Assembly (NCBI GenBank): GCA_045592305.1
Contig: JAZNUO010000136.1
Location: 1 to 54,201 of the forward strand
Reading direction: 5' to 3'
Length of the DNA stretch: 54,201 bases
Source: Eubacteriales bacterium
GTDB lineage: Bacteria > Bacillota > Clostridia > Oscillospirales > CAG-272
The notes beneath the pieces are model-generated. The model had not been told where the DNA came from. It saw nothing but the letters and a program-made list of their open reading frames with translations, and did no database searches. The translations under genes were made by a program, and so were the position numbers. Positions 2,645 through 23,644 of the stretch are shown piece after piece. The first letter of the stretch is position 1, and the number at the start of each line of letters is the position of its first letter.

Positions 2645-2690
2645 GAGAGCAAGGAAAAACCATTCACTCTGCCTACGAAAGGATCATTCC

Positions 2691-3398: not shown

Positions 3399-3444
3399 TG
3401 TGTTCATCGGAAGCACCCGCTTCCGATTCTTTTCCTTCCAAAAC

Positions 3445-3485
3445 AAAACCCGTTACCGACGGCTCTTCTGTCGGTAACGGGTTTT
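3445..3485. terminator. Bidirectional terminator between convergent genes
   Basis: Perfect 16-bp stem AAAACCCGTTACCGAC / GTCGGTAACGGGTTTT, with A/T runs on both sides. Confidence 0.7.
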
Positions 3486-3565
3486 GTGCTTATGTCATAG
3501 AGCTTTTTTTGGGGGGAGCTTTGCCTCCGCCGCGGGCAGAAACCGCGCGAAATATGTCGGAAGCC

Positions 3566-4147: not shown

Positions 4148-4196
4148 GGAAACCTCCGAATATGGTTTGGTAGATCCTATTGTTACGCGGAAAGTA

Positions 4197-4225
4197 ATTA
4201 TACCACAATCGGCAGGCTTTGTCAA
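4197..4225 (-). promoter_or_regulatory. Sigma-A type promoter for mntP
   Basis: Minus strand reads TTGACA, 17 nt, TGgTATAAT. Confidence 0.6.
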
Positions 4226-4300
4226 TTATTTCCGGGAAAACATCCTGCGTCAAATATGAAAGAATTTCCGATGCCTCAGACCGTGTGACGGATGCCCGCG

Positions 4301-5941: not shown

Positions 5942-6094
5942 TTCGCCTCCTTCCTGCCTTAAGTGTGACCATTATACCATGAAGCAAAAATGCTTGCTTG
6001 CAAGGGCATTTTTGCAAAGCCGTCAATAACGCATGTGCGCAACGCGCACACAGGGCGAAGCCCAAAGACTTGTCTCGCAAGGCTTTATGCGTGT

Positions 6095-6123
6095 ATTATA
6101 CCATACAAATCTGGATTTGTCAA
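6095..6123 (-). promoter_or_regulatory. Sigma-A type promoter facing the serine recombinase gene
   Basis: Minus strand reads TTGACA, 17 nt, TGgTATAAT. It is part of a block of about 49 bp duplicated at 19830-19877. Confidence 0.5.
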
Positions 6124-6305
6124 CGAAAACTCCAAAAATATTATATAGAATTTTCAAGCAACACAACTTCCTTGTATTAAATAGCAAATCAAATATTGCA
6201 TTGCAGTAGTCAAAGAAAAGCAAAAAAGTATTTTTATTTTAGAAAAAGGTCTGGACTTTCGCAACCTTCTGTGGTATTGTTGTGTGCTAACAGGAGGTAC
6301 GGACT

Positions 6306-6587
6306 ATGAAAAGCATGATAAAAGAGTTATGGCGAGGAAATATTATGCCGCCCGAGGACAGCAGACACAACACCCCCGAGATGAAACAGCTATTGGAATA
6401 CATTAGTCGGCACAACGATGACTTGCAAAAAACAATGACGGACGAGCAAAAAGAGATATTCGAGAAATTCAACGACTGCTGGAGCGAGTATGCAAGTCTC
6501 TCTGATGAAGCGTTGTTCGAGTATGCTTTCAGATTAGGCGCACAACTGATGCTTGAAACACAGTTGCAACTCAATAAAGAGGGGTAA
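6306..6587 (+). CDS. Small hypothetical protein (93 aa, helical)
   Basis: RBS aggaggt. Tightly followed by the XRE regulator gene. Confidence 0.55.
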   Translation: MKSMIKELWRGNIMPPEDSRHNTPEMKQLLEYISRHNDDLQKTMTDEQKEIFEKFNDCWSEYASLSDEALFEYAFRLGAQLMLETQLQLNKEG

Positions 6588-6592
6588 CTGCA

Positions 6593-6946
6593 ATGCTAAA
6601 ATCAACTTTTCTTAAATCAGTTGGGCGGCGCATTGCGAAAGCTCGCACAGATAAAGGATATAGCCAAGCAACGCTTGCCGAAAAAGCCAATATTTCAGTC
6701 AGCCATTTGAGTAATATCGAGCGCGGGAGAAAAAGCCTAAGTGCCGAAGTCTTACTTAAAATTGCCGAAGCCTTGCAAATGTCGGCAGATGGCATATTGT
6801 TCACCGATATTCCTCAAGTACATAAAGAAGTGGAAAGTCAAATAGACGTCAACCTCAATAATTGTACTGTAAGAGAGAAAGAATTTATACTTAAGCTCAT
6901 CAAGGATATAGGTGCATTTATTACCGAGATTAAGACGGAACTTTAA
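6593..6946 (+). CDS. XRE-family helix-turn-helix transcriptional regulator
   Basis: GYSQATLAEKANISVSHLSNIERGRKSLS is a classic Cro/CI HTH. Confidence 0.85.
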   Translation: MLKSTFLKSVGRRIAKARTDKGYSQATLAEKANISVSHLSNIERGRKSLSAEVLLKIAEALQMSADGILFTDIPQVHKEVESQIDVNLNNCTVREKEFILKLIKDIGAFITEIKTEL

Positions 6947-6956
6947 TAACCCAAAG

Positions 6957-6996
6957 GAGATACGAGTCAGTATTTTGATTCGTATCTCTGTTTTTT
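6957..6996 (+). terminator. Rho-independent terminator
   Basis: GAGATACGA / TCGTATCTC stem followed by TGTTTTTT. Confidence 0.6.
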
Positions 6997-7135
6997 ATAA
7001 TTCATATAGTCCATAGGCTATATCATAGTCTGGGGATTATTTTCTTTTTAACTGATATTTGATACAATAATAGCAAGCATAAATATATTCATCTTATCGT
7101 GATAAAATAATTAGGTAGAAGGAGGATGATAGAAT

Positions 7136-7975
7136 ATGAGAAAAATAACAACTGAAATAATAAAATCATTCAATGACTATCTGATTAACGAGGAAAAGGC
7201 GGCGGCAACCGTCAACAAGTACCTGCACGATGTAGGAGAATTTCAAACATGGCTTGGCGAGCAGGAGCTATGTAAAACAGCAGTTCTTGCATACAAGTCA
7301 TACCTTTGCGAGCATTACGCCCCTGCAAGTGTCAATGCCGCGCTTTCTTCACTCAACAGCTTTTTCGATTTTATGGAGTGGTATGATTTGAGAGTGAAAA
7401 ATCTCAAAATTCAAAAGCAGATCTTTGCCTCCACAGACAAGGAATTGACCAAAGCCGAATATGACCGCCTTTTGCAAGCGGCAAAGCAGAAGAAAAACGA
7501 GCGCTTGTATCTCTTAATGCAGACGATATGCTCCACGGGAATCCGTGTATCCGAGGTGCGCTACGTTACTGTCGAGGCAGTGGTGTGCGGTATTGCCGAG
7601 ATCAACTGCAAGGGCAAGCGCAGACAGGTATTTTTGCCGAAGCAGCTTTGTCAGATCTTAAAGCAATATATTAAGGAGCAAAAAATAAAAAGCGGCGCCG
7701 TGTTCGTAACGAAGAACGGCAATCCGCTTGATAGATCAAATATTTGGAGTGATATGAAAAAGCTATGTAAGACGGCGAACGTGTCGGAGAAGAAGGTCTT
7801 TCCCCACAATCTCCGGCATCTTTTCGCACGCACTTATTACAGTTTGCAAAAAGACATCGTACGCTTGGCTGATATCCTCGGTCACAGTAGCGTAAACACA
7901 ACGAGAATATACACGATGGAAACCGGCGAAGTTCATCGTAGACAGATTCAAAAATTAGGGCTTTTACGGTGTTAA
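7136..7975 (+). CDS. Tyrosine recombinase, XerC/D-like (candidate invertase)
   Basis: 279 aa. GIRVSEV (Arg), HNLRHLFA (HxxR) and LGHSSVNTTRIYT (His...Tyr). No arm-binding N-domain. Ends 18 bp before the left recombination site. Confidence 0.9.
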   Translation: MRKITTEIIKSFNDYLINEEKAAATVNKYLHDVGEFQTWLGEQELCKTAVLAYKSYLCEHYAPASVNAALSSLNSFFDFMEWYDLRVKNLKIQKQIFASTDKELTKAEYDRLLQAAKQKKNERLYLLMQTICSTGIRVSEVRYVTVEAVVCGIAEINCKGKRRQVFLPKQLCQILKQYIKEQKIKSGAVFVTKNGNPLDRSNIWSDMKKLCKTANVSEKKVFPHNLRHLFARTYYSLQKDIVRLADILGHSSVNTTRIYTMETGEVHRRQIQKLGLLRC

Positions 7976-7992
7976 TATAGCTTAATAACAAT

Positions 7993-8018
7993 ACACCACA
8001 TAATTTTCGTTATGTGGT
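7993..8018. repeat. Left lox-like recombination site (inverted repeat)
   Basis: ACACCACATAA-TTTTCG-TTATGTGGT: 9-bp inverted arms around an asymmetric 6-bp spacer. Exact reverse complement of 8217-8242. Confidence 0.85.
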
Positions 8019-8046
8019 AAACAAAAGGCAATATACATAAAAATAG

Positions 8047-8070
8047 GGCGTTCGGTTAAGAACGCCTTTT
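8047..8070 (+). terminator. Terminator inside the invertible cassette
   Basis: GGCGTTC / GAACGCC stem followed by TTTT. A second 11-bp stem lies at 8072-8100. Confidence 0.5.
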
Positions 8071-8163
8071 AGACCAATGAAATCAAAATTTTCATTGGTC
8101 GCCTTTGCTATGCCTGTTTTTGTAAATTTTCATCGATTTATGGGGTTAAAACGATGTTAACAA

Positions 8164-8192
8164 TTGACATATATACTTATTTATGATATAAT
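8164..8192 (+). promoter_or_regulatory. Consensus sigma-A promoter on the invertible cassette (currently ON towards 8275)
   Basis: TTGACA, 17 nt, TGaTATAAT. Confidence 0.7.
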
Positions 8193-8216
8193 CTAATGTG
8201 AGAAATTGTATTACTC

Positions 8217-8242
8217 ACCACATAACGAAAATTATGTGGTGT
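8217..8242. repeat. Right lox-like recombination site (inverted repeat)
   Basis: ACCACATAA-CGAAAA-TTATGTGGTGT. Exact reverse complement of 7993-8018. Confidence 0.85.
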
Positions 8243-8274
8243 GAATACATCAACAAAAAAAGGAGATAAATGCT

Positions 8275-8985
8275 ATGTCACAAATGGATTTCAACAACAA
8301 TTTCTTCAACGAGGACATTCCCCCTATCGTAAACTCAAGTGAGCCTCATATGGCTTGTTTGTTTTTGCTCGATACATCCGGTTCTATGGGCTTTAAAGCA
8401 ACCGACGGCGTTGTTCCGATTGATGCGCTCAACGATGCAATGAACAGATTTAAGGCACAGGTATGTCAGGATGACAAGACCTCCGATATTTTGGATGTTG
8501 CTATCGTAGAGTTCAATAATAGCATTAATGTTATTCAGGACTTCTCGCCCGTTGAATATATGCAGCAGGTGAATCTTACCGCACGCGGAGGCACGTATAT
8601 GGCTCCCGCTATCGAAAAGGCTATCGAGATGGTTGACGAGCGTTCTCGCTTCTACAGAAGAATGGGAACAGAACCCTACAAGCCTTGGATCGTTATGATT
8701 AGTGATGGTGCACCGTTGGATAATATCAGCGATGTTTCCGCAAAGCTCACTTCACTTTCCCAGTCCAACAAGCTCGCATTTTGGTCTTTGAGCCTTCCCG
8801 GTGCTGACAATAAGGTTCTGCACGAACTGTCCGGAGCAAGAGTTTTGAATCTGATTGAATACAATTTTGCAGGCTTCTTTGATTGGGTAAACAAGAGTAT
8901 GAGAGCAGTTTCCGAGAGTTCTCCCGGAGAAAAGGTTATGCTGCCTCCTGCAAATGAAGCAATTACTCTCGATCAGTTAGGATAA
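8275..8985 (+). CDS. vWA-domain protein, TerY-like
   Basis: MIDAS motif LFLLDTSGSMG, then GGTYMAPAI and VMISDGAPLD. RBS aaaggag. Confidence 0.85.
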   Translation: MSQMDFNNNFFNEDIPPIVNSSEPHMACLFLLDTSGSMGFKATDGVVPIDALNDAMNRFKAQVCQDDKTSDILDVAIVEFNNSINVIQDFSPVEYMQQVNLTARGGTYMAPAIEKAIEMVDERSRFYRRMGTEPYKPWIVMISDGAPLDNISDVSAKLTSLSQSNKLAFWSLSLPGADNKVLHELSGARVLNLIEYNFAGFFDWVNKSMRAVSESSPGEKVMLPPANEAITLDQLG

Positions 8986-8992
8986 TAGAGCT

Positions 8993-10126
8993 ATGATGTA
9001 TTCATACGGAACAACACAACAAGGTCCATATCACGTTCAAAAAAATATTGTCTGTCAAGATTTTCATTACATAAAGAAAGTATCCGAGGATTGCGTGATC
9101 GCCGCAGTTGCTGACGGCTTGGGAAGCGAATCTCATTCGGACGTGGCTTCAAAAATTGCGGCAACCGAGTCCGTTGAATATTGTTTTGCCAATCTTCCGC
9201 CTGAATTGACCGAAGAAAATGCTTTGCAAATGATTTCGGATGCTTTTATGCACGCATTACAAAAAATCACGGATGAAGTTGCAAAAGAAAACGGCGATAT
9301 CAATCAGTATGATACCACACTGTGCCTTGCTATCTATAAAGGAAGTAACGTATATTTCGGTCAATCGGGAGATAGCGGAGCTATCGTTTTATGTAAAGAC
9401 GGACATTACGAGGGCATAACAAAACAGCAGCGTGACGAAAACGGTTGCGTTTTTCCGCTTGCTTTCGGCAAAGAAAAATGGGTGTTTGGTTCAAAATCCG
9501 ATGTCGCAAGTTTGCTGCTTGCTACCGACGGAATGCTCGAAATTTTCTTTCCCGTACTCTTACACTCGGAAAAGGTAAACATTTACGTTGCTTTGGCGCA
9601 ATTCTTCATGGATAATATATCCTTGAAATTTGATGAAGCCGGAGAGCAAGCCGTTGGGGAGAAAATGACCGCTTTTGTGCAGAATATTCCCGAAAAGCAG
9701 GTCAATGATGATAAAACGGTGCTCGTTGTCGTGAATGATTCAATCAAACCCGAGCATTTGGAGGACTCCTATTATCAAGTTCCAAATTGGGCAGAGCTTC
9801 AAAAGAAACGCCAAGAGGAATTTAACCGTCTTGCGTATCCTCATTTGTATGCGAAAGAAAAAGCGGAGGAAGCCAAAACGGCTGAAACTTCTACATCCGA
9901 AGCAACCGAACAATCAGACGAAGCAAACAACACTTCCACGGAAACCGCAAAATCCGAAGAAACAAAAAACGAGAAAAAGGATGACGGCGTAGACAAAGTC
10001 ATTCCATCCGATACCGAAACAATCGAAGAAAAGGTAGAAGACAAAAAAGAAGCCTCGGGAGAAAAATCTCCGAAGATCCTTCAACAGATCACCTCTATTT
10101 TCAAACCTAAAGCAAAGAAGGAATAA
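8993..10126 (+). CDS. PP2C-family Ser/Thr phosphatase with an E/K/T-rich low-complexity C-terminal tail
   Basis: AAVADGLGSESHSDVAS and LLATDGMLE metal-binding motifs. The last 110 or so aa are acidic/lysine-rich. Confidence 0.8.
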   Translation: MMYSYGTTQQGPYHVQKNIVCQDFHYIKKVSEDCVIAAVADGLGSESHSDVASKIAATESVEYCFANLPPELTEENALQMISDAFMHALQKITDEVAKENGDINQYDTTLCLAIYKGSNVYFGQSGDSGAIVLCKDGHYEGITKQQRDENGCVFPLAFGKEKWVFGSKSDVASLLLATDGMLEIFFPVLLHSEKVNIYVALAQFFMDNISLKFDEAGEQAVGEKMTAFVQNIPEKQVNDDKTVLVVVNDSIKPEHLEDSYYQVPNWAELQKKRQEEFNRLAYPHLYAKEKAEEAKTAETSTSEATEQSDEANNTSTETAKSEETKNEKKDDGVDKVIPSDTETIEEKVEDKKEASGEKSPKILQQITSIFKPKAKKE

Positions 10127-10131
10127 TTGCT

Positions 10132-13100
10132 ATGACCTACTATGGTGCTAATAGAAAAACGTATATATTAGACGACATACCGATAAAAAAAGGCGGAGAG
10201 GGCGCAATTCACACGGTGTCGGGCAAGTCAAATCTACTTGCAAAAATTTATCTCGCGCCCGCAAAATCTCCCGAACTAAAAGAAAAGATCTCTTTGATGG
10301 TGAAGAATCCCCCCCGTCAGGATATTCTTGACCAGATCGCTTGGCCAATTGATATCCTTTCTGATGCAGGAGGAAACTTTGTTGGTTTCGTTATGCCCAA
10401 GCTGTCGATTGACGTAGAGCTTGGCGACGTATATAAATACCCTGCCAAAAAGAAAGTAACTCTCACGGGAGAGCAAAAGGTTATCATTGCGATAAATATC
10501 TGTCGCGTTATTTCCGCAATTCATGACTTGGATTACGTATTCGGTGATTTTAATCCTTGTAATATCGGCGTTAATTTGACCAACGGACACGTGGCTTTTC
10601 TTGATACAGACTCTTATCATATTACCGACAAGGCAAGAGGCAAGACATATCGTTGTAACGTGTGCTTGAACGGTTACGTTGCTCCCGAACTGATTAAGAA
10701 GTGCAAGAACACGGGATACGCGCAAGCTCCGCTTCCTACGTTCACAAAGGAAACAGACTTGTTCTCCCTTGCTATTCATATTTTTAAGCTTTTGATGAAC
10801 GGCTTTACCCCCTATAACGGAATTCCTGAGAATGAGCGTTCTTCAACGGCTTCTCCCGGTGTTGGTAACGCTGCAATAGAAATGGATCACTATTGCTTTA
10901 AGGCAGGCAATAGACCTTTGAGCGTTGCCGTTTTGCCTTTGCAAGCGTTTCCCAACGATGTGCAAAATCTTTTTACAAGAGCTTTTGACGAAGGACATCG
11001 TAATCCAAGCAAGCGTCCCACGGCAAAGGAATGGGATGCGGTACTTACAAATTACCATTCAAATTTGAAGCAATGTAATGCCAATCCGATGCACCACCAC
11101 TATAAAGGGTTGCAAACTTGTCCCTATTGTGAAGCTGATCAGAGATACAATTTCACAATGAGTATGAGTTCTGTTTACGGAACATCATCCGGCGCGCCTT
11201 CTTCGGGACAGATGAGCTTTTCTACTCCTATGACTCCTCCGCCCACTCCTCCCTCGGGTTCTTCTTATACAAGCTCGTCGTATAACTCATCGGGTAACGG
11301 TCAGTATTCGGGAACTGTTTTGTCGGGTAGCGGTTCTTCTACGAGAGTATCTCAAAGAAGCTCCAACGGCTTTTCGAGGAAAATGCCCAAGGCAATCATT
11401 ATCAGTGTTCTTGCCATCGTTCTTGTAGTCGGAGGATATTTTGGTATTACTACTGCTATCAATAACAACAAGATTGAAAAAGTTGAAGCACTGATCGCAG
11501 ATCTTCCTACCAACCCCGATTATTATATCGATTATCATCAGGAAATCGTAGAAGCATATGCGGCATACCAAGAGCTGAACGATAAACTTCAAGATAAAGT
11601 GGAGAATGCCAACAAGCTTTTCACTTGTATGGAAAGTCTTGAAGTAGAAGAAGCCTATGAAATGCAACAGAATTTGCAATTCACAGAAGTGATTGGCGGA
11701 TATGCTGTAAGTATTAAAAGTGATCGCACCTCCAAATTAAGTGGTAAAGTTGAAATTCCTTCAACATATAGAGGAAAGCCCGTTACTTCAATTCCAACGA
11801 ATGCATTTTTGAATTGTTCAAACATAACTTCAATAATAATTCCCGACAGTGTCATTTCTATAGGTAGTGGTGCCTTTGGTGGATGCACTTCATTGAAAGA
11901 AATAACGATTCCTTTTATAGGATATGAAATGTCTCCTGAAAATCCAAGATGGGCAGTCTTTGGTTTTATATTCGGAGATGGTGAATACAATGATGACAAT
12001 ATGAACAGAGAGGATAAAGTATATAAGACCAGTGGAACAAGCGGTTTCACCTCACAAATTTCTGAAGGGTCGGGCGGATATTTCTATTTCACCATTCCTA
12101 AAAGTCTAAAAAAAGTCACAGTTACCCTCCAAACTAATATTCCGAATTATGCGTTTAACAACTGTGATTTATTAGAAAATGTTGTTTTTGTTAATGATTT
12201 GAAACAAATTGGTAACTATGCTTTTTCAGGATGTACCAATCTCTCGCAATTTAACATCAATTACGGCGTTGAATCAATTGGAATTGGTGCATTTATGAAC
12301 TGCCGCGCGTTCGATACCATAGATATCCCCAATAGTGTAACATCAATAGGACGAGAATCGTTTGTTGGTTGTTCCAAGATTACAAACATTATAATTCCTG
12401 ATAGTGTTAAATCTATAGGTAGTGGTGCATTTGGCGGATGCACTTCATTGAAGGAAATAACCCTTCCCTTTGTTGGTAGTGATAGTTCTCCTGAAAATCC
12501 AAGATGGGCAGTCTTTGGGTATATATTTGGTGATGGTAATTATGATGACGATAACAACATGCAAAAAAGTGATAAAATATATAAGACCAGCGGAACAAGC
12601 GGTTTCACATCACAAGTTTCGGAAGGATCTGGATATTTTTATTACGCTATCCCAAAAAGCCTAAAAAAAGTTACCATCACCCTTCAAACGAACATACCCA
12701 ATTATGCATTTAACAACTGCGATTTGTTAGAAACTATTACATTTATACAACCAACAAAAACGATTGGAAATTATTCGTTTGGCAATTGCTCCGAACTTAA
12801 AATGTTTTCCATGTCATCATCATTAGAAAGCATTGGCAATGGCGCATTTATGAATTGTGCACGATTTTCAAATATTGTTATCCCCGATGGCACCATTTCA
12901 ATTGGAGAATATGCTTTCTGGGGGTTGGTTAATGTAACTAACGTTATTGTACCGAATTCCGTAAAAAATATCGGTTCAGGTGCGTTTTGTCAATGTAGTT
13001 CGTTAGAGGAAATAACTTTACCGTTTATTGGTAAAAATTCCAATCCTGATAATCCCCGATGGGCAGTTTTGGGATATATTTTTGGTGATAATGATACGGA

Positions 13101-13362
13101 TGATACAATGGAAAAAAGCTCCAAAATATACAAAACAAGCGGAACCAACGGTTTTACATCTCAGGTTTCGGAAGGATCAGGATATTTCTATTATGCTATT
13201 CCTAAAAGTTTGAAAACTGTAAGAGTAACTTCTCAAACAAAAGTTCCAGATTGCGCATTTAATAATTGTGATTTGCTCGAAACAATTATCTATTCTTCCA
13301 TCGTGTCTAAAGGTGAGAATTCATTTGCAAATTGTCCTGCAAACATCATTGAAGGAAACTAA
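10132..13362 (+). CDS. Membrane-spanning Hanks-type Ser/Thr kinase with extracellular BspA-type leucine-rich repeats
   Basis: Kinase motifs: KKGGEGAIH, LAKIY, GDFNPCN, FLDTDSY, YVAPE. CPYCEADQ zinc-ribbon-like motif. S/P-rich linker. TM helix AIIISVLAIVLVVGGYFGI. Then LRR units IPDSVxSIGSGAFGGCTSLKEITxP. Confidence 0.85.
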   Translation: MTYYGANRKTYILDDIPIKKGGEGAIHTVSGKSNLLAKIYLAPAKSPELKEKISLMVKNPPRQDILDQIAWPIDILSDAGGNFVGFVMPKLSIDVELGDVYKYPAKKKVTLTGEQKVIIAINICRVISAIHDLDYVFGDFNPCNIGVNLTNGHVAFLDTDSYHITDKARGKTYRCNVCLNGYVAPELIKKCKNTGYAQAPLPTFTKETDLFSLAIHIFKLLMNGFTPYNGIPENERSSTASPGVGNAAIEMDHYCFKAGNRPLSVAVLPLQAFPNDVQNLFTRAFDEGHRNPSKRPTAKEWDAVLTNYHSNLKQCNANPMHHHYKGLQTCPYCEADQRYNFTMSMSSVYGTSSGAPSSGQMSFSTPMTPPPTPPSGSSYTSSSYNSSGNGQYSGTVLSGSGSSTRVSQRSSNGFSRKMPKAIIISVLAIVLVVGGYFGITTAINNNKIEKVEALIADLPTNPDYYIDYHQEIVEAYAAYQELNDKLQDKVENANKLFTCMESLEVEEAYEMQQNLQFTEVIGGYAVSIKSDRTSKLSGKVEIPSTYRGKPVTSIPTNAFLNCSNITSIIIPDSVISIGSGAFGGCTSLKEITIPFIGYEMSPENPRWAVFGFIFGDGEYNDDNMNREDKVYKTSGTSGFTSQISEGSGGYFYFTIPKSLKKVTVTLQTNIPNYAFNNCDLLENVVFVNDLKQIGNYAFSGCTNLSQFNINYGVESIGIGAFMNCRAFDTIDIPNSVTSIGRESFVGCSKITNIIIPDSVKSIGSGAFGGCTSLKEITLPFVGSDSSPENPRWAVFGYIFGDGNYDDDNNMQKSDKIYKTSGTSGFTSQVSEGSGYFYYAIPKSLKKVTITLQTNIPNYAFNNCDLLETITFIQPTKTIGNYSFGNCSELKMFSMSSSLESIGNGAFMNCARFSNIVIPDGTISIGEYAFWGLVNVTNVIVPNSVKNIGSGAFCQCSSLEEITLPFIGKNSNPDNPRWAVLGYIFGDNDTDDTMEKSSKIYKTSGTNGFTSQVSEGSGYFYYAIPKSLKTVRVTSQTKVPDCAFNNCDLLETIIYSSIVSKGENSFANCPANIIEGN
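11836..13362 (+). repeat. Three tandem copies of a 555-bp (185-codon) unit in the LRR ectodomain; the last copy is cut short at the stop codon
   Basis: Units start at 11836, 12391 and 12946. Long near-identical protein stretches: SPENPRWAVFGxIFGDG...KTSGTSGFTSQ(I/V)SEGSG...IPKSLKKVT(V/I)TLQTNIPNYAFNNCDLLE. Confidence 0.8.
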
Positions 13363-13383
13363 CTAAGCATACACGAGGCAACT

Positions 13384-16300
13384 ATGAACAATCAGATTAA
13401 GCAAGATATTCTTACGATTGAGAGCAAAATCAAAAGCTTACATCAAACTTATTTGAATTTGAAGGTGCTTGAGGGCACTCACGCGCAAAAGCTTTCTTCG
13501 GATCAGCAAAAGGTTGATAATGCTTTTCAAGCGGCTCAGCAGAATATCAAAAACATTCAAAGAAATTATCAAAACAGAATAGAAGCAGACAAGGATTTTC
13601 TTGCCGAGCTTACGGCGATGGTGTCGCAGTTGCCTCCAAAGTACACAAAGGAGTACAAGCCCGGTTTTGCAACGTGTCCTCAATCTATCAACATGAATCA
13701 CATTCGTGTTTTCTATGAAATGGTTATTGAGGACACGGCAGAATCCTTTAACAATCGCCTTTGGAAAAAGAACGGTTACTACGATTGGAAGCAAATGACG
13801 CTTGACTTTATGCATATGGTAGAAGAAGCGGAATTGTATTTGCAACGAGATATTCAACTTGCAGTACAGGCTTCCAATCGCGATGTTCAGCAAGCACAGC
13901 AAGCCGCAAACAATGCCCGTCAGCAAGGCAACACCAATCATCAAATGCTTGAGCAAGGACAAAAGCAATTGTTTAACGCCGAGGTGCAAAAGCTTCAGCG
14001 TGAAAGACAAGCGTTTCTTTCAAGTGAGCTTGTGCTTGGCTTTGACCGCCGCGTGAGCAGTTCTTTGGTTGATACTGGCGGTGTTAAAGCGGATTGGTCA
14101 AATTACAATGCCAAGCGAGCAATTGCAAAAGGCATTACCATTGGTAGCATCTCACAGGAGATCCATGCGGAGTCTGTTTCCTTAACCGATCAATTGGAAA
14201 AGGCAATCAAATGCTTTCATTCTATGCCGCAGCTTGGTTCTGCGGTTGGTGAGGTTGAATACACAGATGACAATGCTTTGCCGTGTAAAGATGAGCGAGA
14301 GAAAAGCCGCCGCTCCTTTGATGAAAAAGGCTGGCGCTCGTTTGGTTTGCTGAAAAAACGTTCAAATGTGTTCGGTTACGAGGATGAAGAAGATAAAAAA
14401 GAACCTCCGAAAGAACGCTTTGCAGAATTCTACACTCCGTACACATTACCGTTGACCAAGAATTTTAGACTATACTATGCCAACGGCGGTAAAAAAAGCA
14501 ACGCTGTGGCAGAGGAAATTCAAAGTATTGTTCTCAAAAAACTTCGCGGATATCCTACCGATAGCGTGCGTACATACTTTATCGATCCCGTCAGCCGTGG
14601 CATCAATCTCGGTGTACTGAATACTTCAAAAGAGAAAAACGAAGAAATCGGAATTGGTTTATACAATTCCAAGGACGATATTCGTTTAGCTCTGAAAAAG
14701 CTGGAAGCGCATATTGATGATACCGTATCTAAGCTTGGTAAGTTTTCGTCCGTTAAAGAATATAACCGAAGCAATAAAACGCCCATTGAGGAAACGATGC
14801 TGGTCATATTCGACTTCCCGGAAAGCTTCAGTCAGGATTCCTTGGAGCTTTTGAATACCATTATCAAAAACTCCGACAAATGTGGAATCGATATTATCCT
14901 CTCGTCTGAATACGCAGCGCATTATCTTAGTCTAAATGACAACGCTCCGCGTTTTGATTGGTCTATCTATTTGAAAGAAAAGTGGACGTATATCACCCGT
15001 ATGGGCGATAGGTTTATGCTTTCTGAAGATGGACACCATTATAACAACTACGAGCTTTGTACGCTAACTAATGAGCAAAGAGCTTTTATTGATACATATC
15101 GCAAGGTGTATGCCGACAGTCTGAAGATAGACAACAAATTTTCACACGTATTCAACTCTCCGCAACAAACGGCATACAAGGATGCTACAAACGGTATCGT
15201 ATTGCCCGTTATGATTAGGAACGAAAAGAAGGGTGAGATTTGCGATTTCGTTATTGGAGCAAATGCTAATTCGACTCATGCTTTGATTACCGGTAGCACC
15301 GGTTCGGGTAAATCTTCTTTTTTGCATATGCTGATCACCTCTATTCTGCTAAACTATCATCCCGACGATGTGGAATTTTGGATGATCGACTACGGTAAGG
15401 TAGAGTTTGCTCAATATGCAACTAATCGCCCGGCATCTATACGTTTTCTTTCTACCGAAAGAAGTGAGGAATTTACGTTCTCGTTCCTTGATTACATGAA
15501 AGCCTTTTTCGAGCATAGGGCAGATTTGTTTGCAAAAGAAGGTGTAAACGACATCAAAGCGTACCGTGCAAAATGCGGAAGATTAAGTATGCCTCGCGTA
15601 ATCTTGATGATAGACGAGTTCCATATTATGACGCAACAGGTTCAGCAAGATATTCGCTATAAGAATCTTCTCGAAAACTCACTGACAGACTACCGTAAAT
15701 ATGGTTTATCCTGTATTTTTAGCAACCAAACGCTTTCTGCATTAAACGGGTTGAGTGATACGGGTAAGAAGCAGATCAAAAAGCGTATAGCGATGATGAA
15801 CTCTCTTGATGAAATGAAGTTAACCCTTGATGTTCAAAACGACAACTATTCGGAAGAAATGATACACCGAATGGAAAGAACAACAACGGGTGAGCTTTGG
15901 TGTAAGGAACAGATATCGGACAGAGATTTCACCATCAATCAATTTATGGCGGTTTACATTGACGATAAAGAGCGTAACGCCGTGTTAAATTCTATTGTAT
16001 CGCGTTCTGTCGTTCCGCAAGTTGATTGCGAGGTTCACGTTATAAATGATGCGAAGCGTGAGGAAATATCGATAAGAGATCTTTGCTCAAGAATATCTTC
16101 AATGCAAAGTAATCGCATAACGCCTATACACATGGGTGTACCTGTAACCATTGAGCGAGAATTCCACTTTAATATGGAATCGAGATATAACCACAATGTT
16201 TTGGTTCTTGGCAGAGATTTGGAGTTGTCACAAGGGCTTGTTGAGGTATTGATGGCAAACATCTATGCGCAGGGCGATGCCAAACTTCTTGTGTTTGCGG

Positions 16301-16980
16301 ATCAAATGGATGACATTTATCAGAATCTTCAAGATAACGGAACTTTTGATAAATACAATAACATTGAAGTTCTTGATAATACAAGTGACATTTGTATAAA
16401 GGTCAACGAGCTCTATAATCAAATCAAAGCTAAAAAGATTTTACGGCAAAAAACATTTATTCTTTGGTTGGGATATCCCGATATCTTTGATGAGTTTAAC
16501 GTAAGTCCTTCCAAGAAGGATGTAAAATTTGCAGAAGAATCGGTTAGCGTTCCAAAGGAGAATACGGGTATTGATTTACAGAAAGCATTGCAGGATGAAG
16601 AACTGATAGCGATGGCAAAGGCTTTGGATATGCCTCTGGAGGATTTGGTGCGCTCTATGTGTCAGGTGGAAGAACCTGTAGAGATTGTAGACAAAGATGA
16701 TTATTCTTATAATGCCTGCGATGATGTTAACACGTTGATACAGATGGGAGGAAAATTCAATCTGTTTACCACGATGGTATTTGCTTCTCACAGCGATATT
16801 AGAAGAATTAAAGGATTTGATCTCAATACCTTTATTCATAAGATAGCAACATCAATGCCCAAAGAAGAATCTTATGAATGGGGAATGAAGGCGTTTGCCG
16901 CAGATCTTGAAGCCAAAACAACCGCTGTCTATTATGACGGCGAAAAAGCAAGAAAATTTAGACCGTATATCATTACATAA
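13384..16980 (+). CDS. FtsK/SpoIIIE(EssC)-like P-loop ATPase with a Q-rich coiled-coil N-terminus and no TM segment
   Basis: Walker A ITGSTGSGKSSF (about 15290-15320) and Walker B VILMIDEFH (about 15600). A second, degenerate domain follows (VLVLGRDLELSQG, FILWLGYPDIFDEF). Confidence 0.8.
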   Translation: MNNQIKQDILTIESKIKSLHQTYLNLKVLEGTHAQKLSSDQQKVDNAFQAAQQNIKNIQRNYQNRIEADKDFLAELTAMVSQLPPKYTKEYKPGFATCPQSINMNHIRVFYEMVIEDTAESFNNRLWKKNGYYDWKQMTLDFMHMVEEAELYLQRDIQLAVQASNRDVQQAQQAANNARQQGNTNHQMLEQGQKQLFNAEVQKLQRERQAFLSSELVLGFDRRVSSSLVDTGGVKADWSNYNAKRAIAKGITIGSISQEIHAESVSLTDQLEKAIKCFHSMPQLGSAVGEVEYTDDNALPCKDEREKSRRSFDEKGWRSFGLLKKRSNVFGYEDEEDKKEPPKERFAEFYTPYTLPLTKNFRLYYANGGKKSNAVAEEIQSIVLKKLRGYPTDSVRTYFIDPVSRGINLGVLNTSKEKNEEIGIGLYNSKDDIRLALKKLEAHIDDTVSKLGKFSSVKEYNRSNKTPIEETMLVIFDFPESFSQDSLELLNTIIKNSDKCGIDIILSSEYAAHYLSLNDNAPRFDWSIYLKEKWTYITRMGDRFMLSEDGHHYNNYELCTLTNEQRAFIDTYRKVYADSLKIDNKFSHVFNSPQQTAYKDATNGIVLPVMIRNEKKGEICDFVIGANANSTHALITGSTGSGKSSFLHMLITSILLNYHPDDVEFWMIDYGKVEFAQYATNRPASIRFLSTERSEEFTFSFLDYMKAFFEHRADLFAKEGVNDIKAYRAKCGRLSMPRVILMIDEFHIMTQQVQQDIRYKNLLENSLTDYRKYGLSCIFSNQTLSALNGLSDTGKKQIKKRIAMMNSLDEMKLTLDVQNDNYSEEMIHRMERTTTGELWCKEQISDRDFTINQFMAVYIDDKERNAVLNSIVSRSVVPQVDCEVHVINDAKREEISIRDLCSRISSMQSNRITPIHMGVPVTIEREFHFNMESRYNHNVLVLGRDLELSQGLVEVLMANIYAQGDAKLLVFADQMDDIYQNLQDNGTFDKYNNIEVLDNTSDICIKVNELYNQIKAKKILRQKTFILWLGYPDIFDEFNVSPSKKDVKFAEESVSVPKENTGIDLQKALQDEELIAMAKALDMPLEDLVRSMCQVEEPVEIVDKDDYSYNACDDVNTLIQMGGKFNLFTTMVFASHSDIRRIKGFDLNTFIHKIATSMPKEESYEWGMKAFAADLEAKTTAVYYDGEKARKFRPYIIT

Positions 16981-16994
16981 GGGAGGATATAAAA

Positions 16995-17276
16995 ATGTCT
17001 GACGATTTGACCAAATTAAGTTTGAGTGAGCTCCGTGAGTTCGCCGAGGCACTTGAAACATTTAAAGCGAATATCGAGAAGCGTTGCAATCATATGGAAA
17101 ACGGAATGAATAGTTGTTCCAAATACATGAAGGATGAAACTTCACAGCAACTTTTGAGAAAGTCCGCACAATCTATTGCAGAGATTAGAGAATGCTTGAA
17201 TCCTACCACGCTTCTCCTTGAAAAGGTGTATAGAATGATTGATATTCTTACATCAGGATTCTCGATGGGGGTATAA
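16995..17276 (+). CDS. Small helical protein (93 aa), paralogue 1
   Basis: LREFAEALETFKANIEKRCNHMEN aligns with the N-terminus of the 17568 protein. RBS gggagga. Confidence 0.6.
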   Translation: MSDDLTKLSLSELREFAEALETFKANIEKRCNHMENGMNSCSKYMKDETSQQLLRKSAQSIAEIRECLNPTTLLLEKVYRMIDILTSGFSMGV

Positions 17277-17280
17277 CGCT

Positions 17281-17565
17281 ATGGCAGAATTGAATGTAAA
17301 TGTCAACGATGAAAAAATGGCAGCTTTTTCGGAATATGTTAAGCAATTTGGCAAAGAAACAAAAGCTGACTGTGAAACATTGAAGGCGGCTATGAAAAAA
17401 TTGCAAAGCGCATCTTCTGATGAAGAGCTGTATCAAACGAGCAAAACTGTTGAAAAAATAGACGATATTATCACAGATGCCCAGCCAACAATCAATCAGC
17501 TTTCAAAAAAAATCGACGAGTATGTTGCATTTGTTAGAAGGCTTAAGTTGGCTGCACGCTCATAA
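17281..17565 (+). CDS. Small helical protein (94 aa), paralogue 2
   Basis: EKIDDIITDAQPTINQLSKKIDEYVAFVRRLKLA aligns with KQVEDILAASEVDLQSLVRKISDYERFVVRLKMA of the next gene. Confidence 0.6.
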   Translation: MAELNVNVNDEKMAAFSEYVKQFGKETKADCETLKAAMKKLQSASSDEELYQTSKTVEKIDDIITDAQPTINQLSKKIDEYVAFVRRLKLAARS

Positions 17566-17567
17566 TC

Positions 17568-18524
17568 ATGGATGTATCAGTAAACGTATCCTTTAGGGAA
17601 CTTGTTAGATTTCATGGTTTGGCAGATTCTTTTAAATCGGATATTGCCAAAGAATGTAATGATTTAAAAGAGGCACTTGCCAAGTTGAAAGCAAACAGTT
17701 CTAATGAGGAAATCGAAGAAATAGAACAATGCGTGAAGCAAGTTGAGGACATCTTGGCGGCTTCAGAAGTTGATCTTCAAAGTCTTGTTCGAAAGATATC
17801 TGACTATGAACGGTTTGTTGTTAGATTAAAAATGGCATCGGGAGGATTTTCGTTTGGCAATCACGCTAATAAAGCGCAATCATTTAGATCATCTGTTCCC
17901 GATTTGAGGCACACTAATCAATCTTATACGAATGTTAACATCAACGGACAAACGATGTCTGTATATGATCATCCGCAATCCTTGGGAGACCAATTAAAAT
18001 CCGAACAAGGTAACAATGATTTGAATAAGATTGGTACGTGCTCACTGGTTTCATGTACGAATATTATGAAAATTGGTGGCGTATCGGAAAGCGAGAATTC
18101 CATTGTAAAAAATGCAACACAATGGGGATTGTGTTCTCGCTCTGGTGGAACGAATGCTTCTTTTTCGCAATTATCAGAGATTCTAAGTAGATATGGAATT
18201 GAAACGGAACGCAGTTCAACACTAACGCCCGAAGGATTGGCAAAGGTTGTTGAGAACGGACACGGCACAATCATTTCTGTTGACTCCAGCATTCTGTGGG
18301 GTGAGCCATCTATGAAGATCTTTCCTTCCGTTGACCATGCAATTACTGTTACGAGTGTTGCGAGGAATCCAAGTTCCGGCAAAATAGAAGGTTTCTTTGT
18401 CTGCGATAGTGGACGTTGTATGTCGAGTGATGCGAGCAGATTTGTCGATATCAATACAATGAAACGGGCGCACTTTTATGCAAGAAACCATGGAGCAATA
18501 TATACAAAGAATGTAATTTGGTGA
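17568..18524 (+). CDS. Helical N-terminal domain (paralogue 3) fused to a predicted papain-like Cys-His-Asp domain (toxin/effector candidate)
   Basis: The N-terminal 90 or so aa are homologous to the two upstream proteins. The C-domain has GTC(158)SLVSC, VDH(257)AITV and VCD(280)SG spaced as in cysteine peptidases. Confidence 0.6.
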   Translation: MDVSVNVSFRELVRFHGLADSFKSDIAKECNDLKEALAKLKANSSNEEIEEIEQCVKQVEDILAASEVDLQSLVRKISDYERFVVRLKMASGGFSFGNHANKAQSFRSSVPDLRHTNQSYTNVNINGQTMSVYDHPQSLGDQLKSEQGNNDLNKIGTCSLVSCTNIMKIGGVSESENSIVKNATQWGLCSRSGGTNASFSQLSEILSRYGIETERSSTLTPEGLAKVVENGHGTIISVDSSILWGEPSMKIFPSVDHAITVTSVARNPSSGKIEGFFVCDSGRCMSSDASRFVDINTMKRAHFYARNHGAIYTKNVIW

Positions 18525-18531
18525 GGTGGCT

Positions 18532-19011
18532 ATGATGACAATAAAAAGCATTGAAATGGCATATGAAGAAATATATGATTTTCTCGATGAAATCGATAGC
18601 CATCCTTTAAGCGCGCAAATCTCGCTTCCCATTCCTGACTTGGTAGATGGTGTTTGGGTGGATAAATATTTTGTCTATGAAGATGTTTCTGTTGGTGGTA
18701 AGCATATTGCATATTCTCCGGAGTGGATATTCACTTTTAGCGATGGTAGCATTTGTAGTCATACTCATTGTGAAGAGAGCAATTCAACAGTTGAATACAG
18801 ATTATCTAAATCATTGCAATCAAACATAGTAAATTATATTGAACAGTATAATCGTTTCAAATCCTTGCCTGTTTCTATTTGTGAAGACAAAAACAATGAA
18901 CAAGATATTATAGTTGATCAATATTTTGAAGCATTAAAAAATATCATACCGAAAGAGATATTAGGGTATTATACGACTTCGTCGGTATTATTAAGAATGT
19001 TGAGCAACTAA
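18532..19011 (+). CDS. Hypothetical protein in the immunity-gene position
   Basis: RBS gaggtgg. Starts 7 nt after the effector stop. No recognisable motifs. Confidence 0.5.
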   Translation: MMTIKSIEMAYEEIYDFLDEIDSHPLSAQISLPIPDLVDGVWVDKYFVYEDVSVGGKHIAYSPEWIFTFSDGSICSHTHCEESNSTVEYRLSKSLQSNIVNYIEQYNRFKSLPVSICEDKNNEQDIIVDQYFEALKNIIPKEILGYYTTSSVLLRMLSN

Positions 19012-19042
19012 ACGAGTCGGATAAACCAGAACACAAAAAATT

Positions 19043-19075
19043 TTAACGAGCACATCAGCCTATTGTGCTCGTTAA
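19043..19075. terminator. Bidirectional terminator between the operon and the convergent repressor gene
   Basis: 12-bp stem TTAACGAGCACA / TGTGCTCGTTAA flanked by A-run and T-run. Confidence 0.7.
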
Positions 19076-19080
19076 TTCTT

Positions 19081-19794
19081 TTATTTTTCAACAACCCCAA
19101 TAACCCTACCGCAGCAATAAATGCTATCGTTCTCGGTCAAAGGAATAGGCTTAAATTTTTCATTATGAGAGATCAGGCACTGGTTACCAAGCTCTTTGAT
19201 GTAAACGTCACCGTTGACAACGAAGATACCAACTTCGCCAACATCAATGGAGTCACACTTCTCAACGAATACCTTGTCCCCGTCATGGTATGTAGGCTCC
19301 ATACTGTCACCGCCAACGGAGATAACAAAGTCAGCCTGTTCCGCTTCTGTACTTTCGGGAACGAGCAATTCCTCTGCCAGATCACTGTCAAGGATATTTC
19401 CTGTACCGGCAGATGCAGGCATAGCAAACCAATCTATCTTCAGCATTCTCGGCTTGGGCTTTCTTGTCAGCACCGTCACACGTTTATATTCGCTGTCGAT
19501 CAAATAATCAACAACCTCTTTACCGTGCTCATCAAGGGCGCGGTATTTTTGTAATGTATTCCATTCGGTAGCGGTAGGGCGTTGCGCCATGGACTTGCAT
19601 CCGATCAGCTCATCCGCAGATACACCGAGCAGGTCGCAAAGCTTTGCCAGCTTATCGCAATCGGGGCGACCGATACCTTTCTCCCAGTTATAGATAACTC
19701 TGCCCGAGCTCTCCCCAAGAGCATCAGCGATGTCCTGCTGGGTCATGCCTTTTATATTACGGTACTTCTTTATCTGTTCGCCAATAAAGCTCAT
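19081..19794 (-). CDS. LexA/CI-like repressor (XRE HTH plus S24 self-cleaving peptidase domain)
   Basis: GMTQQDIADALGESSGRVIYNWEKG HTH. GDSMEPTYHDGDKVFVE is the S24 serine motif, and a Lys motif lies in GDVYIKEL. Confidence 0.9.
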   Translation of the reverse strand: MSFIGEQIKKYRNIKGMTQQDIADALGESSGRVIYNWEKGIGRPDCDKLAKLCDLLGVSADELIGCKSMAQRPTATEWNTLQKYRALDEHGKEVVDYLIDSEYKRVTVLTRKPKPRMLKIDWFAMPASAGTGNILDSDLAEELLVPESTEAEQADFVISVGGDSMEPTYHDGDKVFVEKCDSIDVGEVGIFVVNGDVYIKELGNQCLISHNEKFKPIPLTENDSIYCCGRVIGVVEK

Positions 19795-19825
19795 ACGGAT
19801 ATACCTCCAAGTGTATTACGCATCT

Positions 19826-19854
19826 ATTTTACCATACAAACTTGTATTTGTCAA
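19826..19854 (-). promoter_or_regulatory. Sigma-A type promoter for the repressor gene
   Basis: Minus strand reads TTGACA, 17 nt, TGgTAAAAT. Lies within the block shared with 6099-6147. Confidence 0.5.
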
Positions 19855-19884
19855 TAGAAACTCCAAAAATATTATATAATCCTA

Positions 19885-19913
19885 TTGACAATACAATATT
19901 ATTGTGTTATAAT
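19885..19913 (+). promoter_or_regulatory. Divergent consensus sigma-A promoter
   Basis: TTGACA, 17 nt, TGtTATAAT. Confidence 0.6.
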
Positions 19914-21389: not shown

Positions 21390-21707
21390 TTGGGACGATT
21401 ACAATCAGAATCGATATCTCTTCACGTAACCCCGGAAGAAAAAAAGGCGATGGTTGAACGCATGAAGGAAGCCGTCTCACCATCGATGCGAGCCTTTATT
21501 TTGGACATGTGTATGCACGGAAAGGTCATCGTGAATTCAGATCTGCGAGAGCTGAACCAAGAGCTTCGCTATCAGGGAAACAACCTCAACCAGCTCACAA
21601 AGCTCTGCCATCAAGGCAGGATCTCTGCGGTCGATCTATCGGAATTGTTATCTCTTTATAGGCAGATTCTTCTTGCGCTCGGAGGTGAAAGCGATGGCGG
21701 TAATTGA
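21390..21707 (+). CDS. mobC: MobC-family relaxosome accessory protein, TTG start
   Basis: RYQGNNLNQLTKLCH matches the MobC GxNLNQ motif. RBS aaaggag. Confidence 0.75.
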   Translation: MGRLQSESISLHVTPEEKKAMVERMKEAVSPSMRAFILDMCMHGKVIVNSDLRELNQELRYQGNNLNQLTKLCHQGRISAVDLSELLSLYRQILLALGGESDGGN

Positions 21708-23623: not shown

Positions 23624-23644
23624 AATTAACAAGTGAGGTGTGTT

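Follow-up and report, generated by a model that had tools for sequence, protein, structure and literature searches.

A phase-variable operon of gut Clostridia joining a TerY-P-like signalling triad to a soluble EssC-like ATPase and a predicted polymorphic toxin cassette

A 54,201-nt stretch of DNA from a Eubacteriales bacterium (GCA_045592305.1, contig JAZNUO010000136.1), hereafter the window, to which coordinates refer unless a relative is named, carries an operon of eight plus-strand genes (8275–19011) whose transcription is phase-variable and which is in the ON state here. Its first half encodes a signalling triad of a von Willebrand factor A (vWA) protein, a PP2C phosphatase and a receptor kinase; its second half encodes a soluble ATPase related to EssC of type VII secretion systems (T7SS), two small helical proteins, a toxin with a helical N-terminal domain and a candidate immunity protein. 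Judged by their joint conservation in relatives, the two halves are predicted to form one system. The gene combination as such is already described, by comparative genomics only. New here are the leucine-rich-repeat (LRR) receptor kinase, the papain/deamidase toxin set, the dedicated invertible promoter (inverton) and the setting on a mobilisable island in gut Clostridia. We lean, with slightly less than even confidence, towards reading the operon as a system of T7SS origin that is gated by the kinase and delivers a toxin to other bacteria.

An operon behind an invertible promoter

The switch, the operon genes and their terminator are as follows (coordinates, strand, feature; values are those of the profile matches):

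7136–7975, plus: tyrosine recombinase, 279 aa (Pfam Phage_integrase 3.5e-30, with a SAM-like N domain)
7993–8018, no strand: left inverted repeat, 26 nt, 100% complementary to 8217–8242, with 198 nt between the arms
8019–8216, no strand: invertible segment holding the operon promoter (8164–8192, plus), here in the ON orientation
8217–8242, no strand: right inverted repeat, complement of 7993–8018
8275–8985, plus: gene 1, TerY/TscE-like vWA protein, 236 aa (Pfam VWA_2 1.6e-8, VWA 3.4e-7)
8993–10126, plus: gene 2, PP2C/PPM phosphatase, 377 aa (Pfam PP2C_2 6.2e-21; NCBIfam Stp1_PP2C 2.4e-13)
10132–13362, plus: gene 3, receptor Ser/Thr kinase, 1076 aa (Pfam LRR_5 3.2e-76, Pkinase 1.7e-6)
13384–16980, plus: gene 4, EssC/EccC-like FtsK-family ATPase, 1198 aa (Pfam FtsK_SpoIIIE 3.2e-21)
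16995–17276, plus: gene 5, helical protein, 93 aa (NCBIfam ESAT6_2 E 0.004)
17281–17565, plus: gene 6, helical protein, 94 aa (Pfam WXG100 E 0.053)
17568–18524, plus: gene 7, toxin, 318 aa (helical hairpin, disordered linker, papain-fold domain 120–318)
18532–19011, plus: gene 8, candidate cognate immunity protein, 159 aa, directly 3' of gene 7
19043–19075, no strand: intrinsic terminator (12-bp stem 19043–19054/19064–19075, 9-nt loop, T-run)

Re-derivation of the open reading frames (ORFs) returned the closely packed genes of an earlier note on this DNA, with intergenic gaps of 7, 5, 21, 14, 4, 2 and 7 nt; these 2–21-nt gaps leave no room for a further ORF between the operon genes. The single promoter and single terminator proposed there were likewise recovered. 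The promoter (TTGACA, 17 nt, TATAAT, with an extended −10 TG) is the sole 12/12 match to the sigma-70 consensus within 7900–19900, and the terminator consists of a 12-bp stem and T-run, with a 9-nt loop that exceeds the 8-nt loop limit of the automated terminator scan. It is probably common to the operon and the convergent gene of an S24/LexA-like repressor.

The promoter lies between two inverted repeats, and the recombinase gene, which encodes the candidate invertase of this switch, stops 18 nt short of the left one. A terminator-like hairpin on the minus strand of the segment (8066–8047) would point at the operon once the segment is inverted. Comparison with locus L007, from an uncultured Clostridia metagenome-assembled genome (MAG), aligned window positions 7995–8242 to L007 positions 4862–4615, i.e. 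a 248-bp segment in reversed orientation, at 93.5% identity, with the recombinase and vWA flanks collinear; the inverton is OFF there. Because a reversed segment sits between collinear flanks, we conclude that the element inverts in nature. What the earlier note had put forward as a candidate invertible promoter is a real inverton: repeats enclose a promoter, a recombinase gene lies beside them, and natural samples contain the segment both ways round. The recombinase, as candidate invertase, would flip this promoter element of ~250 bp, so that only part of a population would express the operon.

The 279-aa recombinase gene is also found directly upstream of the operon in relatives L001–L003 and L007. 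L001 and L007 have 24-nt repeats, likewise spaced by 198 nt, and the promoter-like hexamers of L001, judged by eye, aim away from the operon. Locus L005 carries different repeats (a 33-nt pair) and a recombinase pseudogene (333–2037); a resolvase gene occupies the toxin position there. Invertible promoters with an adjacent recombinase were reportedly catalogued in gut bacteria by Jiang et al. in 2019. The element described here is like these gut-bacterial invertons in its repeats around a consensus promoter, its recombinase alongside and the natural occurrence of both orientations, and in the literature searched we found no report of an inverton governing a T7SS-like or TerY-P locus.

Proteins of the signalling and effector halves

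The TerY-P triad is defined (Anantharaman 2012, as far as cited in PMC11090510) by a TerY-like vWA protein, a PP2C phosphatase and a kinase with a C-terminal zinc ribbon. Genes 1–3 have this composition within one operon, in line with the triad named in the earlier note: the vWA protein, supported by its VWA_2 match, has an intact metal-ion-dependent adhesion site (MIDAS; D33-x-S35-x-S37, T107, D144), the phosphatase is supported by its PP2C_2 match, and the kinase has an invariant zinc ribbon. The PADLOC search that the note had proposed gave a more mixed picture. Gene 1 reached the TerY model at E 3.9e-4, gene 2 had no match, gene 3 scored against mad6/PD-T4-6 at ~1e-5, and the locus was not recognised as TerY-P. 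Neither gene 1 nor gene 2 encodes a transmembrane (TM) segment or signal peptide; the gene 1 product is predicted to be cytoplasmic, and that of gene 2 ends in an acidic, S/T-rich tail.

Gene 3 had been called a Hanks-type kinase. Its catalytic motifs bear this out; the description was incomplete in that it overlooked a zinc ribbon, a TM helix and three LRR_5 repeats. From the N-terminus, the protein consists of a cytoplasmic kinase domain (residues 1–340), the zinc ribbon (C315, H321, C330-P-x-C333), an S/T/P-rich linker, a single TM helix (421–439, KD 2.63) and an extracellular region of three BspA-type LRR_5 repeats of ~185 aa each, encoded by three 555-nt DNA repeats spanning 11814–13290. 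Although the Pkinase match is weak, the GGEG loop, A37-K38, G-D139-x-N-P-x-N144, D158-x-D160 and APE motifs, as well as the zinc ribbon residues, are invariant in eight orthologues, and the product is predicted to be a catalytically intact, active-looking receptor kinase. Its ectodomain varies between relatives in length and type (total kinase length 898–1342 aa), with no LRR_5 in the L001 kinase and two tandem kinases in L005. In L002/L003 no kinase gene was called; a shufflon-like inversion within it, suspected for this reason, was ruled out by blastn, which showed only a 71-nt indel in the repeats.

The gene 4 ATPase is, by sequence, of T7SS ancestry: its best NCBIfam match is T7_EssCb (1.4e-18) and its best matches in the PDB are YukB (3.8e-17) and EccC, with weak matches to TrwB_AAD_bind and plasmid TraB. 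In agreement with the earlier description of a cytoplasmic FtsK/SpoIIIE-type enzyme, it has no FHA domain and no TM segment (maximum KD19 1.13, versus 2.63 for the kinase helix). A single Walker A motif (637–644, GSTGSGKS) and the Walker B motif (MIDEF, 742–746) lie in the central domain, which is preceded (~360–560, site 368) and followed (~900–1198, site 940) by degenerate P-loop-like domains. The first ~230 residues form a coiled coil, with long helices at 2–81 and 135–212 in a low-confidence AlphaFold2 (AF2) model. That model was built from an alignment of eight sequences and reached a pLDDT of 44, and domains were assigned from motifs and profile matches instead.

By blastp (E 1e-8 to 1e-14), genes 5 and 6 are paralogous to each other and to the N-terminal ~95 residues of gene 7; we refer to this family of ~90-aa helical hairpin proteins or domains as HEL. 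A joint alignment of the three shows invariant F16, F23 and C31, and gene 6 is 30–37% identical to the toxin N-domain across several loci. HEL proteins fit WXG100 proteins in size, hairpin and gene position, with weak sequence matches (E 0.004–0.053) and no WxG motif in genes 5 and 6; the HEL profile matched HP0062 at E 0.026, and the remaining PDB matches were mostly coiled-coil noise. A YxxxD motif lies near the C-terminus of gene 5 (residues 79–83, 17229–17243); L006 has YxxxE at this place, and L001 and L005 lack the motif. It resembles the YxxxD/E export signal of T7SS, and is too short to be significant alone.

The gene 7 N-domain, a ~90-aa hairpin, has no LXG match. In the AF2 model of the whole protein (pLDDT 71.7; ~80–90 in the C-domain), the hairpin helices span residues 9–43 and 46–91, and the C-domain is modelled as a papain fold whose Foldseek neighbours are all papain-like, among them the phytochelatin-synthase-like 2bu3 (8e-5), the C39-like 3erv, staphopains and a toxin of contact-dependent inhibition, CdiA-CT (8ssm). 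With the putative catalytic triad Cys158, His257 and Asp280, gene 7 is a predicted protease toxin. Blastp, AF2 and Foldseek together uphold the earlier note on the three paralogous helical domains, one of them fused to a papain-like domain. Gene 8 has no domain match, signal peptide or TM segment and is predicted to be cytoplasmic. In relatives, a gene of its type always stands directly 3' of a window-type toxin.

Conservation of the locus and exchange of its parts

Close relatives of the ATPase (54–97% identity) are rare: a search of 5.8 billion protein clusters gave eight, and 185,579 species genomes gave two loci. Both of these loci are in Clostridia MAGs, one of them a fecal Eubacteriales; a Hadza gut sample is the source of one relative from metagenomes. 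Across this identity range the full gene order recurs, and recombinase, inverton, vWA, PP2C, kinase, ATPase, HEL, HEL, toxin and immunity gene follow one another wherever the contig is long enough. Divergence from L005 grows towards the 3' end of the operon, with identities of 96.6% for the vWA protein, 75% for PP2C, 48–58% for the kinase, 54% for the ATPase and 36–45% for the HEL proteins. This mosaic (vWA gene 8275–8985 versus L005 2256–2966) suggests recombination within the operon or strong diversifying selection at its 3' end. Like the OFF inverton of L007 and the recombinase pseudogene of L005, two further features are signs of decay or inactivation among the relatives. The ATPase of L007 is cut off after ~327 aa (10001–11146), and P0028 joins ATPase residues ~1–390 in frame to the ~40 C-terminal residues of the toxin, through either a deletion or a misassembly.

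An exhaustive profile search placed 1,355 clusters (50% identity) in the wider ATPase family at E ≤ 1e-30. Metagenomes, those of the human gut among them, and some plasmids encode these proteins, which are typically 1,100–1,250 aa long, with a single central Walker A motif in nearly all of the members listed. Most are soluble. A TM-like segment is missing in 109 of 116 full-length representatives, and the soluble share is ~90–94% across the full-length sets; 7 of the 116 representatives, and 5 of 49 full-length metagenome ORFs, have one or two TM helices at residues ~70–290 (mostly 150–290). This is roughly where EssC carries its own TM helices. Membrane-anchored L033 and L039 retain the HEL–HEL–toxin–immunity cassette, a pattern suggesting that anchoring can come either from the ATPase itself or from a partner protein.

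Neighbourhoods of the wider family were surveyed in 80 metagenome loci, 74 of them with downstream sequence. HEL genes of ~90 aa lie directly 3' of the ATPase in 66 of the 74, and 60 loci have at least two of them. A larger gene usually comes next; strict phmmer assigns it the papain domain of the window toxin in 23 loci, the iterated profile in 24, and the papain-domain gene is followed by a gene of 150–170 aa. Upstream of the ATPase, each of the three triad genes has a strict orthologue (E 1e-25 to 1e-70) in 8 of the 41 loci whose flank on this side reaches 5 kb or more and, among the closest of these loci (ATPase 29–32% identical), in six of nine. All triad counts rest on single-pass phmmer. 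An iterated kinase hidden Markov model, which gave 44 of 80 loci, was discarded after it drifted onto 250-aa membrane proteins without kinase similarity.

Since both halves are co-conserved down to ~30% ATPase identity, we read the triad and the ATPase/toxin cassette as one predicted system. The earlier note had considered that the halves might never be conserved together elsewhere; with triad orthologues linked to ATPases of 29–32% identity, this is not the case.

Additional genes accompany some of the loci. In the close relatives L019 (3470–3976), L102 (3954–4460) and L103 (6929–7435), a 168-aa gene without Pfam match, not found in the window, separates the ATPase gene from the HEL genes. 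Five more distant loci of the triad type (L021, L022, L025, L026 and L030) have an extra helical gene of 67–83 aa that follows PP2C and precedes the kinase; its product has the conserved motif W-x-D-D-M-S-K-K-[YF], like the WNDKKY of the P0021/P0022 toxin N-domains. It is not ubiquitin-like, and is also missing from the window.

The toxin end of the cassette is exchanged between relatives. The gene 7 N-domain is 75–87% identical in P0024, P0025 and P0027, which carry other C-domains: P0025 and P0027 have PF15644 (Gln_amidase, a glutamine-deamidase papain-fold toxin), and the C-domain of P0024 has no assigned family. Where the C-domain differs, the place of gene 8 is taken by an unrelated small gene, of 83 aa or of 71 aa (DUF7675). 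Conversely, the window-type papain domain is found behind quite different helical N-domains (P0020–P0023). Genes 7 and 8 are thus, to judge from these alignments, of the polymorphic toxin–immunity type, in which one N-domain is joined to three or more kinds of C-terminal toxin and the gene downstream changes with the toxin; this co-variation agrees with the immunity position that the earlier note had given to gene 8.

Exchange extends to the genes in front. In L014–L016 (~2124–12921; P0022 toxin), the cassette follows E2-CBASS, Prok-JAB and ThiF/E1 genes with small ORFs, and there is no triad. A soluble ATPase gene and three HEL genes are joined there by genes for a 216-aa protein and for a papain toxin whose C-domain is ~50% identical to that of gene 7, then by a 162-aa gene and one for an LRR_5 protein of 495 aa; the module occurs in many contigs (43 index blocks). 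By gene content, a predicted ubiquitin-like conjugation front end stands in for the kinase triad there. In locus L045 (features at 3210–4568, 7101–8303 and 15645–16790), a DO-GTPase (PF19993/PF19975) precedes the cassette together with a vWA protein of 400 aa, and a calcineurin-like phosphoesterase comes after it; the 250-aa membrane protein directly upstream of its ATPase has no demonstrable kinase similarity. Loci L008–L013 have Bacteroidota-like contexts (PorV, Peptidase_C25), so that their hosts would be diderm. They combine distant ATPases (1181–1476 aa) with 136- and 226-aa proteins before the ATPase and, after it, a 93-aa HEL, 156- and 80-aa proteins, a double-zinc-ribbon protein and a small LRR_5-like protein, again with no triad. 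A relative on a Helicobacter plasmid has an HNH toxin and an SMI1/KNR4 immunity gene. The cassette occurs behind several unlike gene sets, and is therefore best seen as a module to which different regulatory front ends can be attached.

Known counterparts, possible functions and genomic setting

The earlier note did not recognise the operon as a described system type. However, the combination is already present in PMC11090510 and PMC4978471, and the related T7SSc in PMC11217815. Bell et al. 2024 (PMC11090510) describe a cassette inserted between the TerY-like vWA genes of Type III-A CoCoNuT operons. Its EssC homologue, without TM or FHA regions, begins with a coiled coil and has three ATPase domains, with activity confined to the middle one. 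The cassette also contains a pair of WXG100 proteins (WxG is missing from one), a coiled-coil–nuclease fusion and, after this, a small protein. The link between TerY-P and the ATPase/WXG100 genes is credited by Bell et al. (PMC11090510) to Anantharaman et al. 2012, as far as that work is quoted there, and is repeated, with a soluble EssC-like ATPase and for Helicobacter, by Uchiyama et al. 2016 (PMC4978471). The window shares with this cassette the TM- and FHA-less ATPase with coiled coil and a single active central domain (window model pLDDT 44), two WXG100-like genes, a helical-effector fusion with a small candidate neutraliser, the link to a vWA/PP2C/kinase–zinc-ribbon triad and the suspected character of a mobile stand-alone cassette. 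It differs in several respects. Both of its small helical genes lack WxG; its kinase adds a TM helix and a variable LRR ectodomain; it has its own inverton and recombinase; and its host is a gut Clostridia member rather than one of the Proteobacteria or Campylobacterota. The CoCoNuT effector is a D-ExK nuclease, in contrast to the papain-fold protease or deamidase of the window family, and the McrBC-like CnuB/C, the CnuH/E core and the second vWA gene of the CoCoNuT extension are not in the window.

T7SSc, as defined by Garrett et al. 2024 (PMC11217815), has a core of TscE (vWA), TscF (PPM phosphatase), TscD (an active membrane kinase of EssB-like topology), TscC (an FHA-less, membrane-bound EssC) and TscA (WXG100), together with the ubiquitin-like TscB and the EspG-like TscG. 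The window likewise encodes a cytoplasmic vWA protein, a PPM phosphatase, a membrane kinase with N-terminal kinase domain, an FHA-less EssC-type ATPase and small helical proteins, and both have toxin substrates with small helical partners; genes 1 and 2 are likened to TscE and TscF by domain and topology, not by sequence orthology. TscC is membrane-bound, whereas the window ATPase has no TM segment and only one active P-loop domain, and no YukD or EspG match to represent TscB or TscG was found among the eight genes. Lacking TscB, TscG, an ATPase TM segment, a second vWA gene and the McrBC-like core, the window fits neither T7SSc nor the CoCoNuT extension strictly. A Bacillus mycoides plasmid locus (L100) tried as a T7SSc comparator proved to be a canonical T7SSb locus.

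LXG toxins of T7SSb, according to work by Klein et al., reportedly come with the targeting partners Lap1 and Lap2 and with cognate immunity proteins. The analogy to LXG loci drawn in the earlier note is a sound one, in that the order of ATPase, small helical proteins, toxin with helical N-domain and immunity gene is the same, and C-domains are swapped together with immunity genes in both. The LXG domain, the TM/FHA-bearing EssC and EsaA, EssA, EssB and EsaB set these loci apart, none of them being matched in the operon or its neighbours; the note had correctly reported no EsaA/EssA/EssB-like genes and no WxG motif in the operon. The stand-alone antiphage system built on a TerY-P-like module (Gao 2020, as far as cited in PMC11090510) also has vWA, PP2C and Ser/Thr kinase in one operon; in that account an OB-fold follows the kinase, where the window has a zinc ribbon, TM helix and LRR repeats, and adds five further genes. 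No experimental study of the soluble EssC-like ATPase class was found in the literature searched.

For the toxin-delivery reading, we envisage the following sequence of events. The two free hairpins and the toxin N-domain would assemble into a helical bundle, like Lap1/Lap2/LXG or EsxA/EsxB, to be recognised by a hexameric ATPase. The receptor kinase, in its EssB/TscD-like topology, would bring the ATPase to the membrane and switch it on upon an external cue, e.g. competitor contact or envelope stress; PP2C would reset the switch, and the vWA protein may act as a phospho- or metal-dependent adaptor. The ATPase would then pull the toxin off its immunity protein and pass it to an export route, and the toxin would attack neighbouring bacteria without the immunity gene. 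Export is preferred because the toxin–immunity pair is polymorphic, the T7SSc triad provides a precedent and a minority of the ATPases bear TM helices.

Several observations weigh against export. Apart from the kinase, with its single pass, the operon encodes no membrane protein, and among its products no match to EssA, EssB, EsaA, EsaB or EspG was found that would represent a translocon. Homology between HEL and WXG100 is not established, given the weak matches and missing WxG, and hhalign of the HEL profile against two canonical Bacillus WXG100 proteins was insignificant. In the six contexts examined, no immunity homologue is an orphan, each of them adjoining its toxin. The cassette is also joined to modules usually read as intracellular defence (CoCoNuT, E1/E2/JAB, DO-GTPase with vWA), and Bell et al. 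2024 (PMC11090510) took the missing TM domain to imply a mechanism unlike classical secretion.

The strongest competitor, to which we assign a substantial probability somewhat below that of toxin delivery, is intracellular abortive infection. The triad would sense phage, perhaps via the kinase ectodomain or envelope damage, and the ATPase, exporting nothing and keeping a T7SS-derived unfoldase activity, would strip the immunity protein from the toxin–HEL complex, freeing the toxin inside the infected cell. This would suit an ATPase that is soluble in ~90–94% of the full-length family, an operon without channel genes, and a costly defence under phase-variable expression. An AbiLi-like ATPase lies on the same island, immunity homologues occur only beside their toxin in the six contexts noted above, and the cassette is found in CoCoNuT restriction operons, with E2/JAB/E1 genes (L014–L016) and with a DO-GTPase and vWA protein (L045). 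The TerY-P-like antiphage module (Gao 2020, to the extent cited in PMC11090510) points the same way. Yet some close family members are membrane-anchored with the same cassette, T7SSc employs the same triad in secretion, PADLOC does not recognise the locus as TerY-P, and a large, variable extracellular LRR receptor would be unusual as an internal phage sensor. Moreover, a co-varying immunity gene beside a domain-swapping toxin is a hallmark of exported polymorphic toxins, as Zhang et al. are said to have set out in 2012.

A more specific proposal, which we regard as less likely than not, is that a T7SS motor has been freed from the membrane and reused within the cell, such that a phospho-signal from the kinase would make the ATPase strip off the immunity protein and release the toxin in the producer itself. 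On this proposal, one such toxin-release engine would be wired to several different sensors, namely the TerY-P triad, E1/E2/JAB, DO-GTPase with vWA, and CoCoNuT.

Chance juxtaposition of a stand-alone TerY-P triad and an unrelated ATPase/toxin cassette, sharing a transcript in this contig only, deserves very little credence. Such an accident might be read from the 33 of 41 loci without a full triad, from TerY-P triads that exist without the cassette and from mosaic conservation (L005 vWA 96.6% versus ATPase 54%). It is largely refuted by co-conservation: the eight-gene order is held at 54–97% ATPase identity, triad orthologues (E 1e-25 to 1e-70) are still linked at ~30%, the genes are 2–21 nt apart between a single promoter and a single terminator, and the linkage was independently reported in Proteobacteria and Helicobacter (PMC11090510, PMC4978471).

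The surroundings of the operon agree with the mobilisable-island context described in the earlier note. A low-GC island of ~22 kb (~4.3–26 kb, ~40% G+C against a host background of ~60%) is bounded by shifts in G+C at ~4.3 kb and ~26 kb. Besides the operon and its switch, it holds:

4301–5941, minus: large serine recombinase
6306–6946, plus: DUF6809 and helix-turn-helix (HTH) pair
19081–19794, minus: S24/LexA-like repressor
21673–23136, plus: MobA/VirD2 relaxase
23633–25129, adjoining the relaxase: AAA_21 ATPase (PADLOC AbiLi 5.8e-29, AriA 6.5e-20)
25098–25907: 269-aa partner gene without database match, overlapping the AAA_21 ATPase gene

The neighbours of the operon are thus recombinases, HTH proteins, the S24 repressor, the relaxase and the AbiLi-like ATPase; by gene content the island looks like an integrative mobilisable element, and its last two genes are likely an AbiL-type defence pair. 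That gene 4 is a DNA translocase or coupling protein for island transfer, with toxin and immunity as an addiction module stabilising the island, is highly improbable: a relaxase (21673–23136) and a serine recombinase with no evident coupling protein, and the weak TrwB_AAD_bind and TraB matches, would speak for it, but EssC/EccC score far above TraB or FtsK, only one of three P-loop domains is active behind a coiled-coil N-terminus, and the ATPase travels with HEL and toxin genes in relaxase-free loci and chromosomal contexts.

These results outline a large family of mostly unanchored EssC-like ATPases that travels with WXG100-like hairpins and swappable toxin–immunity pairs. The locus described here is a compact and complete example of it, with an on/off switch, a candidate input in the variable-ectodomain kinase and a candidate output in the protease toxin with its antidote. 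It is therefore a good model for separating a minimal new secretion route from a secretion motor reused in intracellular defence. If true, an intracellular toxin-release engine would add a new principle of effector activation to bacterial immunity and show that a secretion system can meet a new fate. Whichever of the two holds, more would be learned about how T7SS evolved, about signalling through TerY-P and about phase-variable antagonism or immunity among gut bacteria.

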